64,000 bases of DNA from Euglena gracilis (taxonomy: Eukaryota): positions 19,144,642 through 19,208,641 of the forward strand of contig CP154954.1 of assembly GCA_039621445.1 (NCBI GenBank), read 5' to 3'. Positions 56,825-62,800 of this stretch are shown here, one piece after another; the first letter of the stretch is position 1, and each line of letters opens with the position of its first letter. Under the pieces are notes generated by a model, which did no database searches, had not been told where the DNA came from, and was given only the letters and a program-made list of their open reading frames with translations. Both the position numbers and the translations under genes were made by a program.

Positions 56825-59800
56825 TCATACGCAAGTGACCTCGTACAGCATCTGGATGTTGATCCGCACTTTGGTGGTCAAAGATACCTGAGTTTGTACA
56901 TTGGTCACCCCAAAGCAGATGTTGCACGGCAACAGGCAGCCTGCAGTCGGTGGGAAAAGCAGGTGGGGGGGGGGTCGTGCCCCCACAACCTAAACAGTGG
57001 TGCAGTCCAGGTGGCTGGAGCGAAACAAATTCCCCACCCAACATCGGCAAAAATTTGCTATTCTGGGCACACTTTGGGTTAAAAAATAATAGCCAGACAC
57101 AAAGTTTCAACACATCACACACGCACACACACGCACAACACACACACACACACACACACCACACACACACACACACACACACACACACACACACACACAC
57201 ACACACACACACACACACACACACACACACACACACACACACACACACACACACACACACACACACACACACACACACGCACGCACACCCACCCACACCC
57301 ACACCCACCCACACCCACACCCACACACACACCCACACACACACACACACACGCACGCACACACACAGATATATGTACATATATATATATACATAAATAT
57401 GCATATATACATATATATTTACATACATATATACATATATACATATATACATATGTATATATATATATATATATACCATATATATACATATATATATATA
57501 TATATACATATATATATGGTATATATATATATATATACATATATACATACCATACACACACACACACACACACATATATATATATATTTATATGGCAGCA
57601 AGCTAATACTTGGCAAAATGTGTGTGTGTATGTATACATAATTCATTTTTGGTTTCAAACAATTAACAATTAAAAAGTAAGAAGTAATGAAAAATGAAAA
57701 AATGAAAAAATGCGTCGCCTTAACAAATAAAATTTTGTTTAAATGGCCGACAATGCGGTGGGAAACACCTTTTTCTAATTACTTATATAACAGAATTTAA
57801 CAGAATTCACTTTCAATTTCAAACAATAAGCAATTAAATAACAAAAAAAATGTAAAAACATGCCTTAAAAATATGTGTGTTGATTTTGGTTAAACAGCTG
57901 AGAACGCCGAGAAATTATTGTTCGTTTTCCCCCTTAATTTCAATAACAATATACAAAAAGGGGGGGGGGACCGCAGAAAAAAACTGCATGGAAATGCTCC
58001 AAAACCACCCCTGTGCCGCCAATGTCATCTGATTGTGCGGCAGGGTGTTGTGGTGAAGCAGTCCAGCCTGGGTGGCAACAGGATCTCACGCTCGTTGGGG
58101 AAGGCGCTCACCCCCTCAAGGTGGATCAGCTTGTTGCAGAACGTCCGCGGGATGGTGATGACGAAGAGGTGGACCCCGAAGCCAGGGCTTTACGGGAAGG
58201 ACAGGGAGCTCGAACCGAGGGTTCGAGCATAAGCTCCCCCCCCCCCGCTCCAGAAGGGGGGAGGGCGGGAGGGTTGCGGTAGGAGGAGGCTCCGTCGGCG
58301 GAGGCTCTAGAGCCTCCTCGAACGATATTCGAGGTGGTTCGAGGAGGCTCTGGAGCCTCCTCGAACGAAGTGCGAGTTCGTTCGAGGAGGCTCCAGAGCC
58401 TCGTCCTACGTACATACATGCGGGTATCAGGAGCTCAGGATGAAACATTCAAAAACATTCAAAATTATCTCTCTCTCTCTCTCTCTCTCTTTCAGTCTCT
58501 CTCTCTCTCTATCACTCCTCCATCTGTGCAATGTTATGTTAAGGGAATGAGCCCCCACCGGCCCATGGTGTGCGGTGCACAAGTGCAAGGTATTCAAGTG
58601 AGGTTGTCTTGCTGTCACATCTATCTCTTGAATGCACAACATAACCACCTTTTTTCATAATCTGTTTGTGTGCATGTTCACCCTAACCCTATCCCTTCAG
58701 TTAACAACATAACTCTCATTATCTTCCTAATCTTTTTGTGTGCCTGTTCACCCTAACCCTATCCCTTCAATTAATAACATAACTCCTTCTGTTTTCGAAT
58801 TTTCTTTTGTGTGCATGTTCACCCTAACCCTATCCCTTCAATTAACATTATACCTCCTTTTTTATCCTAATTTGTGTGCATGTTCACCCGAACCCTATCC
58901 CTCCAGGTAACAACATAACTCCCTTTAATTTCCTAATCTTTGTGTGTGCACGTTCACCCTAACCCCATCCCTTCAATTAACAACACAACTCCTTTTGTTT
59001 TCGAGTTTTCTTTTGTGTGCATGTTCACCCTAACCCTATCCCTCCAGTTAACAACATAACTCCCTTTATCTTCCTAATCTGTTTGTGTCCCCCGAATTCA
59101 TCTCTCAACAAATCAACCTCCATTTTTTTTTAAATATTCTCATCACAAAAACCCAGAAAACTGATGCACGGTCTCCTGATACGAGCAAGCATGTACACAG
59201 GAGGAGGCTCGAGATTTCGTTTGAGGAGGCTCGAATGACCTCAAACGACGTTCAAGGAGGCTCTAGAGCCTCCTCGAACGTCGTTTGAGGAGTTTTGAGG
59301 AGGCTCTAGAGCCTCCTCGAACGCCTTTTAAGCCCCCCCCTTCGGGGGGGGGGGCTTAAAAACGTCTGAGGAGGCTCGAGGCCTCCTCCTACGGTTACCC
59401 CCCCCCTGGGGAGGGCACCGAAACTGGGTGGTCTGGGTGACTGATTTTTGGTGCGGTGTTAATCGCCGTATCGATGTTTTGGTGTACCCTAAAATTCGGC
59501 CCAAAAATCCGTTTTGGGCATAGGGCATATTTGGACAAAAAAATGGCACAAAAGCTATCGGCGCAAGCGCCAGAAGGAAAAATTTGACCTTTGGGGGGTC
59601 CTGGGTCCCCCCAGATTGGGAGTCTCCTTGGCAGGTGGGGGTCTGAACTCTGGTCCAGGGGGGCACTACCCCCTCCCCTACCCCGTACACTCCTCGTATT
59701 GAATTTCGTCGGATCCCCCTCCCCACCACCATCAACCCCCCCAATAGAAGCACGGGCGTGCTTGTAGCGGACCGCCACTTCCGGTGGCTGGGGTGAGCTT

Positions 59801-62800
59801 CTATTTGGACCCCACCTGCGGAATTTTTGTTGATTTCCGCTAGAATTCCCATCAAAATGGGGGGTGCGCTTGTTGGGGGGTGCGCTTTTATTTGGACCCT
59901 GCGCTTGCGGCCCCGCGCTTCTATAAGGGGGGATTTAGGGGTTCGGTGATTCCTGTGTAGCCCTGCCTGAAGGAAACGCTGCTGTTCTCGAGGCTGGTGG
60001 ATGTGAAGCCCGACCAGATGAAGTGCTTTGGTGGCAGGGGGGGCCAGGAGACGACCCAGGACGCGAAGCCAGCAGACAAAAAAATGCACCTCCCCCCCAA
60101 CCGGTTCGACGCAAACCCCACACGTCACCGTTGCGGTGGGTGGAATCGGTGCCCAATATCCTGTTCTTCGGCAAACTGCCGTGCCGGGGACAAAACGCTC
60201 AGCCAGACATTCATTTAGTGTGTTCACAAATCCGATTGTGAACACAAAATTTTTTTTGGTGAACACAGGTGAAAATATTTTTTGTGAACTGAAACGTCAA
60301 ACTTTTGTGAATGTAAACATTTCTAAAAGTTGGTGTACTTTACTTAAACTCGGACTGATCTGTTGACACCATAGCCACACTTGTTGGACTTGTTCAACTT
60401 GTTCAACTTGTACGACGTTTTTGGTGAACACAGGTGAACACAAAATTTTTTTTGGTGAACATTGGTGAACACAATTTTTTTTTTTGGTGAACATAGGTGG
60501 CACACAAATTTTTTTTTGGTGATACACATGATACACAAATATTTTTTTTGGTGAACACACTAACTGAATGTCTGCGCTCAGCCGTCTCGCCAACCTGTTA
60601 GAAAGGTCGTGGAAAAAAAAGTTGCTGCAAATCAGGCACATGGGTCAAACGGTTGTCCACAGATTGGGGGAGGGCCACACTCAAGAGCACAAAAATTCGA
60701 CACGGGCGAATACCCCTCACAAAAAAAACCAGTCACAAGGCGCTTCAGCCCCGGACAACCCATTTGGCTCAACTTCCCAGAGGGGTGGGGTCAGCCAACA
60801 TCCTTCTTCCAGCAAGCGCATATCCCCCCCCACGCCCAACGACCACGTAAGGTTCATCTCCTACCGGGGGGGGGGGTAAGCCGCTAATGTTTGTCTCTGA
60901 CCAGGGAGGCAGGTAGTTAGACAAGGGGGGTGGACCCCAGCTTCGCAAAAACAGGCCAAGATGAGAATATATGGTCATTTTCAACAAAATTAGAAAAAAA
61001 ACTTCTCTGTGACATGCAAATGTAAAAAAAAAGGGGAAATGACACAATATTTCTCCACAATTATTGAACCATGATCGTATACAAAAAGGTCAAATCTGAC
61101 TGTTGGACAAACCCAGGCATTGGACAGGGGGGGGGGTGAGAGGTAGCCTCTGTAATGAACCCCAAAATGGGGGTTGTTAAGCAACGCTCTGGATGCCATT
61201 TTGACCCATTTCTAAATATTTTTCGGCCATTTTGATCGTTTGTTCCCATTTCTGCTAGCCTTTTTTGTTCGGTTGTTATTGGCTGAAATTAAGGGACGAT
61301 GAGAATGCAATTACTGCAAAAAGTCAGCTATTGAAACACCGAAATCACACTGTTTCAATATGACCCATTGCACAACGCTGAATGCATGTGACCCCCGAAA
61401 ATCCCTCGTAAAAATACACCGAAATTCGATGGGTGGTGTGGAGGTTGACCACCCCCCACCAGGCCTTCTTCCCCTATTCCCGGCGGCGTGGATTATCAGG
61501 TTACATTCTTCCTTCAGCGCCGAAGGAGCATTGGCTTGCAATCTACGGAACCACAAGCTGGCAAACAGCCTCTGGGGCACCCCTGGCCTTGGCCACATAC
61601 AATTTCAGCTGGCTGTCCTGCAGGGTCGTGCGGCGGTACAGTGTGATGGAGGGATTCCCGGGTATCAGGAGGTGGCTCAGCAGCAGGTCGCACAACTGGG
61701 CTTCGCCAGGGGATACGAGGGAGAAATGGGAATGGTGGAGGAGATGGGGTTTAAAGAGACGTTATGCTGGTAACCCTGACGAGTGTGGTGCCACATTTTG
61801 TGGTAGCCAATACGCCGAACAATTTGCGTGTCGGTTTGCCTCTTGGTCACGGACACCAAGAGGCCGACTTGATCTGGTGTGCTAGATCAATCAACTGCTT
61901 CTTGGGTTTGACCTCTCCGCCCGTCCAAGAAGTTTGCGCACACCAGGGCGACTGTGGTCGTGATGACACAAAATTTTTTTCATCACCAGCTCATAGGGTA
62001 TACAAAACTTAAAACCCGCTTCATTCCGGAGGTTCAAATGCACAAGTGACTGGGAAGAATTCTCAACCATTTGGACATCATTCAATTCCTCGGCAATGGG
62101 ACTACAGACAAAGTCGTTGGAATATTGACATTCAACTGCGGCATCACAATCCGCTTGACCATGAACATCCCAAACACGGTATATGCCTTCCCCCTCCAAT
62201 TAGAAACAAGCCTGCGAGAAGAGTTCTCCGTTGTAAAATTTAAATGCTAGGCATCTGCGGACATAAATAGACACCAGCAGAGCCCAAGATGGTACATCGT
62301 GGCATTTATGGCACAGATAATCCGAGGGCATATTTCGAAAATGGTCACTTCGAGAAACCCATTGGGTCGCATTCGTAATATTTTAAACAAAAATAAATTG
62401 TATATTGTCGGAAATCCACAAAAAATATTCAGTGATTCTGAAAAAGAAGCCTTCCAACTCCCCTGCCCTTCTGTATCAGCATTGATGAACTGAAAAAAAA
62501 GCTGAAATGGTAAGGTGACAAAATTTTTTTGTATATTTACAGGCAAATAATAAAACATAATTGTGTCCAATAACTATCCCCACTGATACCCACCGAATGA
62601 AAAATTTCTCCAAACTAGATATGACTGCAAATCACTGGCGCACTCCCTACTTACTGACTAGTGACCACAAATGGAAACTTGATCGAGGGGACAACTGGGG
62701 AGAGCGAACCAGAATACAAATAATCTGGGAGAGCATCCGTGGTCCCCACCAATAGAGCCTTGATGAAGGGCATGAAATAAGACAGGTCGTCTTTGTTGTC

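Follow-up and report, generated by a model that had tools for sequence, protein, structure and literature searches.

A nonconventional intron in one of two neighbouring ADP-ribosyltransferase-like genes of Euglena gracilis, probably derived from a transposon

Introduction

Nonconventional introns interrupt nuclear genes of euglenids, and where they come from is an open question. As set out in Milanowski et al. 2014/2016 (PMC3935182, PMC4770533) and Nomura et al. 2025 (PMC12501133), which supply the consensus for the comparison made here, these introns lack GT-AG borders, their ends are base-paired and direct repeats at the two junctions make the junction slidable. In the earlier consensus, CAG occupies +4 to +6 and CTG occupies -8 to -6 (PMC3935182, PMC11282704). 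From knock-in mutagenesis, the code in Euglena was given as 3 spacer bases, CDG ... a complementary CH'G, 5-6 spacer bases and a purine (PMC12501133); on the donor side a spacer of exactly 3 nt is required and on the acceptor side one of 5 nt, where one additional nucleotide is tolerated (Nomura et al. 2025, PMC12501133). Here we describe an intron of this class, 1791 nt long, in a stretch of 64,000 nt of Euglena gracilis DNA (GenBank assembly GCA_039621445.1, contig CP154954.1, positions 19,144,642 to 19,208,641 of the forward strand; called the window in the following). It divides an exon of an ADP-ribosyltransferase-like gene (gene A), and the same exon is uninterrupted in the neighbouring paralogue (gene B).

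Gains of nonconventional introns were found to be frequent in surveys (PMC3935182). One of them, intron 4 of gapC in Euglena agilis ACOI 323, is strain-specific: it is nonconventional, present in one lineage only and has eight-nucleotide direct repeats at its junctions, which the authors read as the outcome of double-strand-break repair (PMC4770533). That polymorphism occurs within a species and its repeats are intact, whereas for gene A old paralogues are compared, the repeat has decayed to 6 of 8 positions and free elements with 8-bp target-site duplications (TSDs) lie nearby. A further related system are the introners, introns derived from transposable elements of the miniature inverted-repeat type (MITEs) in Micromonas and other protists, in which a non-autonomous DNA transposon that sits in an exon is spliced out like an intron and the TSD provides part of the splice boundary (PMC11282704). 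Introners depend on the spliceosome, bring GT/AG sites along or create them, and are recognised as multi-copy families (PMC11282704); in contrast, the intron of gene A would be removed by the nonconventional route, and the window holds no second copy of its element.

A MITE-like origin and frequent TSD-like flanks of nonconventional introns are already published (PMC3935182, PMC4770533, PMC11282704, PMC12501133, PMC12621601). The papers from 2014 to 2025 propose MITE-like transposons and name no element, and in 2014 it was stated that no transposable elements had yet been identified in euglenids (PMC3935182). The locus described here joins an exon-splitting nonconventional intron with a decayed 8-bp repeat, an empty site in a paralogue and young free elements with the same ends. 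By itself, the locus offers a good, though unsurprising, example of nonconventional intron gain.

Results and discussion

Structure of the split exon

The DNA of the window is nuclear and euglenid. Genes A and B are on the same strand, with A directly upstream of B, and only the 3' part of A is inside the window. The parts of the two genes that bear on the split exon are the following.

18134..52862, minus strand: gene B, about 34.7 kb, 33 exons and 32 introns, from the mapping of protein P0002
18630..18794, minus strand: uninterrupted exon of gene B, 165 nt, from the same mapping
56825..63680, minus strand: 3' part of gene A as far as the window covers it, with 7 exon pieces, up to and including the stop codon
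59969..60029, minus strand: exon piece d1 of gene A, 61 nt, coding for the STS motif in the ADP-ribosyltransferase-like domain
58178..59968, minus strand: intron of 1791 nt in gene A, nonconventional and paralogue-specific, dividing the homologue of the 165-nt exon of gene B
58074..58177, minus strand: exon piece d2 of gene A, 104 nt, encoding the ExE motif (E-R-E)
59966..59973, minus strand: upstream TSD-like 8-mer CCTTCAGG, 5 exonic bases and the 3-base 5' spacer
58175..58182, minus strand: downstream TSD-like 8-mer GCTTCGGG, the 5-base 3' spacer and 3 exonic bases
58183..59965, minus strand: putative insertion, an element of 1783 bp with CAG ... CTG at its ends, terminal inverted repeat (TIR) matching at 11/14 positions; together with 8 nt it makes up the intron

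EukProt was searched with the translated gene B exon, which returned two proteins, EG_transcript_2083 (P0002, 887 aa) and EG_transcript_755 (P0003, 1232 aa; paralogue C in the following). P0002 maps to the minus strand from 52862 (first residue) to 18137 with approximately 100% identity in nearly all exons, and gene B and P0002 are identical at 173 of their last 175 residues. Therefore, gene B is the gene of EG_transcript_2083. The two differences, V/I and R/H, fall into the regions 18683-18679 and 18212-18208 and could be due to allele, strain or assembly.

A first-pass annotation of the window, made from the sequence alone, had described a single 165-nt exon in gene B and the same 165 nt split into 61 and 104 nt by 1791 nt in gene A, between the STS and the ExE motif. 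The mapping of P0002 bears this out, with the exon of gene B at 18794..18630, the pieces of gene A at 60029..59969 and 58177..58074, STS in the 61-nt piece and E-R-E in the 104-nt piece. In the proposed register the coding sequences of A and B align over 528 nt with equal length, free of gaps, and gene A has no internal stop. The 5 other introns of gene A in the window are at positions common with gene B and have the same end motifs.

On the gene strand the intron begins with AGG as 3-base spacer, followed by CAG ... CTG and GCTTC as 5-base spacer, and the next exon base is a G (58177). The arms CAGGGCT and AGCCCTG (gene strand, minus) are located at 59965-59959 and 58189-58183. The 8-mers that flank them, CCTTCAGG and GCTTCGGG, are identical at 6/8 positions, again in agreement with the earlier annotation, and the homologous place of gene B has a single 8-mer, TCTTCGGG, at 18738-18731 (the "empty site").

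The products of both genes have MIB_HERC2 repeats, a SAM domain and, at the C-terminus, an ADP-ribosyltransferase-like domain; in the product of gene B, the MIB_HERC2 repeats number two. In Pfam, paralogue C (P0003) passed the cut-offs of PF01129 (25.8, cut-off 22.3) and PF03496 (25.1, cut-off 23.4), and gene B (P0002) stayed below both (16.7 and 19.0). The STS and ExE (E-R-E) motifs of an R-S-ExE ADP-ribosyltransferase domain, which we take to be the catalytic ones, are seen in the host gene.

Class of the intron

The intron of gene A fits the published code exactly, with a 3-base spacer, CAG and CTG at +4..+6 and -8..-6, a 5-base spacer and the purine G at the start of the exon. The junction can be slid over 5 equivalent registers by means of a common CTTC, and 0/5 have GT/GC-AG borders. 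The 25-nt ends of the intron pair with -22.1 kcal/mol. For comparison, the own ends of the 26 transcript-supported introns of gene B that are in register average -21.1 kcal/mol, and mismatched (cross-paired) intron ends give about -14.6 to -14.8 kcal/mol (+/- 4.7); a pairing as stable as that in gene A was reached by 2/52 cross-pairs and 5/500 shuffles. The intron thus has all the sequence features of the class listed above and no structural difference from it. By its sequence it is a euglenid nonconventional (non-GT-AG) intron, and we infer that it is excised from the RNA. This is the point that the first-pass annotation, whose idea of a transposon origin is supported below, had missed.

The same holds for the introns of gene B. 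In any register compatible with the protein, 0/32 are of the GT-AG type; the strict code is followed by 14, a different complementary trinucleotide pair occupies these positions in 10, CA/TG is present in 2, and 6 are without a register. Gene B is apparently spliced by the nonconventional route only, and since all 32 introns are non-GT-AG and 14 follow the strict code, nonconventional splicing is the norm in this gene family. For the intron of gene A, no GT-AG register within the searched range yields a product of paralogue length. The only in-frame alternative in that range is of the GC-AG type (59966..58188, minus strand); it would place 4 additional residues between STS and ExE, residues that are missing from P0002, P0003 and gene B.

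The frame of gene A in the window is intact; it is open through all 7 exon pieces (175 codons), and the ratio of nonsynonymous to synonymous divergence (dN/dS) between gene A and gene B is 0.245. Over 175 residues, A and C share 158 identities, B and C 135 and A and B 133; unique amino-acid changes number 5 in gene A, all conservative, and 3 in the expressed paralogue C. Judged by these values, gene A is not decaying. Decay would be the expected outcome of an old, unspliced insert of 1.8 kb that separates catalytic motifs, and the intact frame is indirect support for splicing of the intron. A scan of metagenomes with the peptide of the gene B exon gave 469 pattern matches, of which 0 were confirmed.

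Mobile elements in the window

The whole window was scanned for CAG...CTG pairs at distances of 60-3000 bp that have TIRs of at least 11/14 and flanking 8-mers identical at 7/8 positions or more. Seven elements were found, compared to 0.05 expected in shuffles; six have a TSD of 8/8 and one of 7/8. Displaced 8-mers, used as control, gave only one pair with 8/8 and none with 7/8. Six of the seven elements start with CAGGG, which is in line with the likeness that had been noted between the arms of the intron and the CAGGG termini of local MITEs. The elements, for which a strand does not apply, are listed together with a further copy of one family.

6217..7479: element of 1263 bp, TIR 13/14 starting with CAGGGC, perfect TSD GTTCTTCA
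19728..20163: element of 436 bp, TIR 14/14, perfect 8-bp TSD ATACGGTG, in an intron of gene B
26262-26562: element of family F3, perfect flanking 8-mers, but within a (CA)n run
29443..32122: element of 2680 bp, perfect TSD GTGGCAAG, nested 17 nt inside the gene B intron 32139..29208
42206-42472: element of family F3, TSD 7/8
51375..51633: element of family F3, 259 bp, perfect TSD GTCCACCC
60204..60574: element of 371 bp, perfect TSD CGCTCAGC, inside the preceding intron of gene A
24270-24530: further copy of family F3

A scan that made no assumption on the termini gave the same picture: outside low-complexity DNA, all TIR elements whose perfect flanking repeat was 5 nt or longer were CAG-terminated and had an 8-bp repeat. 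Most of the seven elements sit in introns of genes A and B. With one of them nested in a gene B intron and another in the preceding intron of gene A, such elements have recently been entering both genes and enlarging their introns, and the perfect 8-bp TSDs indicate recent activity of the elements.

Duplications of 8 bp are made by hAT elements, and the local elements, with their 8-bp TSDs and short TIRs, resemble non-autonomous members of the hAT superfamily. The assignment is based on duplication length and terminal bases only: a Pfam search with 15 open reading frames (ORFs) of the intron and the largest elements gave no transposase, no other credible family and no hAT dimerisation domain. 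Since 0/15 ORFs have a transposase match, the local elements are non-autonomous in all copies in the window.

Origin of the intron

The layout of the gene A intron matches that of the local elements: it has CAGGGC ends, a TIR of 11/14 and consists of a 1783-bp element plus 8 nt. The 3 and 5 spacer bases of the splicing code add up to 8, the TSD length of the local elements, and removal of the intron therefore takes the element and exactly one equivalent of the duplication. The 6/8 match of the flanks, treated as a single pre-specified test, has a null probability for at least 6 matches of approximately 0.017, as calculated from cross-paired flanks of the 26 gene B introns in register. On these grounds a transposon origin of the intron appears well supported, short of proof. 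Taking the alternatives into account, we consider with moderate confidence that gene A carries a paralogue-specific nonconventional intron which is most likely transposon-derived and was probably gained in the lineage of A.

Such a gain most likely took the following course. A non-autonomous DNA transposon with CAG...CTG ends would have entered the exon of the ADP-ribosyltransferase-like gene between the STS and ExE motifs, generating an 8-bp TSD. The nonconventional machinery would cut 3 bases before CAG and 5 bases after CTG, and excision would remove the element together with one equivalent of the 8-bp duplication, restoring the reading frame as it was before insertion; with the frame restored, the insertion would be tolerated. 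This probably took place in the lineage of A (or of A and C) after its separation from paralogue B, and inverted arms and tandem repeats would later have enlarged the element or remodelled its interior.

Several observations weigh against this course of events. When the window was scanned blindly, the 6/8 class made up 2/164 of the CAG...CTG TIR pairs, compared to 1-3/164 with displaced 8-mers; the 6/8 match is thus at background, and the flanking repeat is suggestive, not decisive. Across the 26 gene B introns in register, mean TSD-likeness was 2.88/8 compared to 2.67 in the null (permutation p = 0.20). The TIR and the CAG/CTG ends are no independent evidence for a transposon because they are needed for splicing. 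Elsewhere in the 64-kb window, the element gave only 2 short matches of 34-51 nt and no second copy. Furthermore, CTTC, which provides 4/6 of the TSD matches, consists of the last bases of a tract of low divergence between A and B and could stem from an overshoot of gene conversion. A search of the protein collection gave only B-type and C-type proteins and no transcript-derived protein of gene A. Finally, the 2/8 mismatches are compatible with an age similar to that of the A/B split, and the repeat gives no date after the duplication.

The tract of low divergence covers exon piece d2, in which A and B are 95% identical and differ by a synonymous divergence of 0.11, whereas the remaining exons have 0.50 (Fisher p = 0.0003). 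In d1, directly upstream of the intron, synonymous divergence is 0.40. The region 58063-58181 (vs 18619-18737 in gene B) looks like a gene-conversion tract between A and B that ends at the intron. The match in the 3-base 5' spacer (2/3) is not explained by such a conversion.

As to the timing, the 175-residue comparison gives the tree (B,(A,C)), in which A pairs with C as its sister and B takes the place of outgroup. Gene B is without the intron, and a gain on the branch of A or of A and C is favoured because it requires one event, compared to an insertion followed by a precise loss. The claim of the first-pass annotation, a gain by transposon insertion after the gene duplication, is thus sustained as to the transposon by the architecture, the 6/8 flanks and the empty site in gene B; as to "after the duplication", it comes down to parsimony. 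Synonymous divergence (dS) between A and B is 0.61, from which approximately 2.5 mismatches in the 8-mer are calculated for an insertion of the same age as the split. The decayed repeat and the age of the split would therefore also suit an ancestral intron that was inserted before the duplication and precisely lost from gene B, for example by recombination with spliced cDNA, a loss that would leave exactly the empty site seen in B. We regard this history as unlikely: it takes two events on the tree, gene B retains both introns neighbouring the exon (721 nt and 393 nt), and the published pattern is one of frequent gain (PMC3935182).

Improbable, in our view, is a gain in A of a true nonconventional intron that involved no transposon, for instance by double-strand-break repair as proposed for the gapC intron with its eight-nucleotide repeats (PMC4770533), the likeness of the 8-mers then being due to chance, splice constraint or conversion overshoot. 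The background rate of 6/8 matches in the blind scan, the position of CTTC next to the low-divergence tract, the single copy of the element in the window and the 0/15 ORFs with a transposase domain would all fit such a gain. What speaks for a transposon instead is that free elements with the same type of ends and duplications of exactly 8 bp are abundant and recent at this very locus, that the spacers of 3 and 5 bases equal the length of their duplication, and that the 2/3 match in the 5' spacer is left over when conversion has been allowed for. Highly improbable, finally, is that the intron is an unspliced insert in a young pseudogene A or is removed by GC-AG splicing at 59966..58188, readings to which the missing gene A transcript, the one in-frame GC-AG register and the "intermediate introns" discussed in the literature (PMC4770533) lend some colour, since the frame of gene A is intact with few and conservative changes, the nonconventional register gives exactly the length of the paralogue in place of 4 residues absent from P0002, P0003 and gene B, and all 32 introns of gene B are nonconventional.

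A transposon-derived gain in the lineage of A leads to a wider proposal, which we put forward tentatively and as somewhat less probable than not: the spacers of the splicing code, 3 nt before CAG and 5 nt after CTG, may mirror the 8-bp insertion footprint of a resident, recently active, hAT-like family of non-autonomous CAG...CTG elements. If so, an element that inserts into an exon with a purine at position 6 of the duplication would be removed from the RNA, taking one equivalent of the duplication with it, and the message would be restored. A footprint of 8 bp would also explain why the majority of nonconventional introns is slidable, why both junctions have a pyrimidine|purine context and from which source these introns arise, and the intron of gene A would be an aged example of the process. 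Should the pattern hold genome-wide, the source elements would be identified and the 3 + 5 spacer rule would be rationalised. In an incomplete coverage of the literature, we found no publication that states the equivalence of 8 bp and 3 + 5 or names a family of elements with 8-bp TSDs in Euglena.

Interior of the intron

Within the intron of gene A lies a composite structure.

58300..59316, strand not applicable: internal composite with inverted arms at 58300-58433 and 59173-59316

The arms enclose a (CT)n run and seven tandem units of approximately 70 nt (58621-59096). The composite may result from later remodelling of the element or from a nested, foldback-like insertion; neither outer limits nor a flanking duplication could be defined for this inverted-arm structure.

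Additional observations in the window

Two wider claims on TSDs were considered and rejected. The first, that a blind scan for transposons singles out the gene A intron, fell because the offset control puts 6/8 matches at the background rate. The second, that a TSD signal is general among the introns of gene B, fell because their mean does not exceed that of the null (p = 0.20). Among these introns, 3/26 reach 6/8 in their flanks, compared to 0.4 expected, the 6/32 introns without register being left out of this count. The three are located at 52803-52713, 49657-49295 and 38125-37775. The intron at 52803..52713 (91 nt) has near-perfect inverted ends of 9-10 nt, of the CGG/CCG type, and also offers a GC-AG option.

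The MIB_HERC2 repeats of gene B are an internal duplication (43906-44052 / 36267-36413 and 42552-42680 / 34722-34850). The introns of the two repeats are at homologous positions and their end motifs are conserved, including the spacer bases, and it follows that intron ends are kept over long times. The gene B exon that encodes residues 169-187 of P0002 occurs twice, at 48136-48080 and 47539-47483, and sits in a local duplication of approximately 300 bp (47286-47593 / 47894-48190) with 85% identity.

Two families of dispersed repeats of approximately 270-390 bp, rich in C-run/G-run hairpins, were seen besides the CAG...CTG elements. The copies of the first are located at 687-1072, 7854-8252, 23291-23654 and 39898-40161, those of the second at 16722-16984, 42805-43114, 45017-45339 and 21867-22139.

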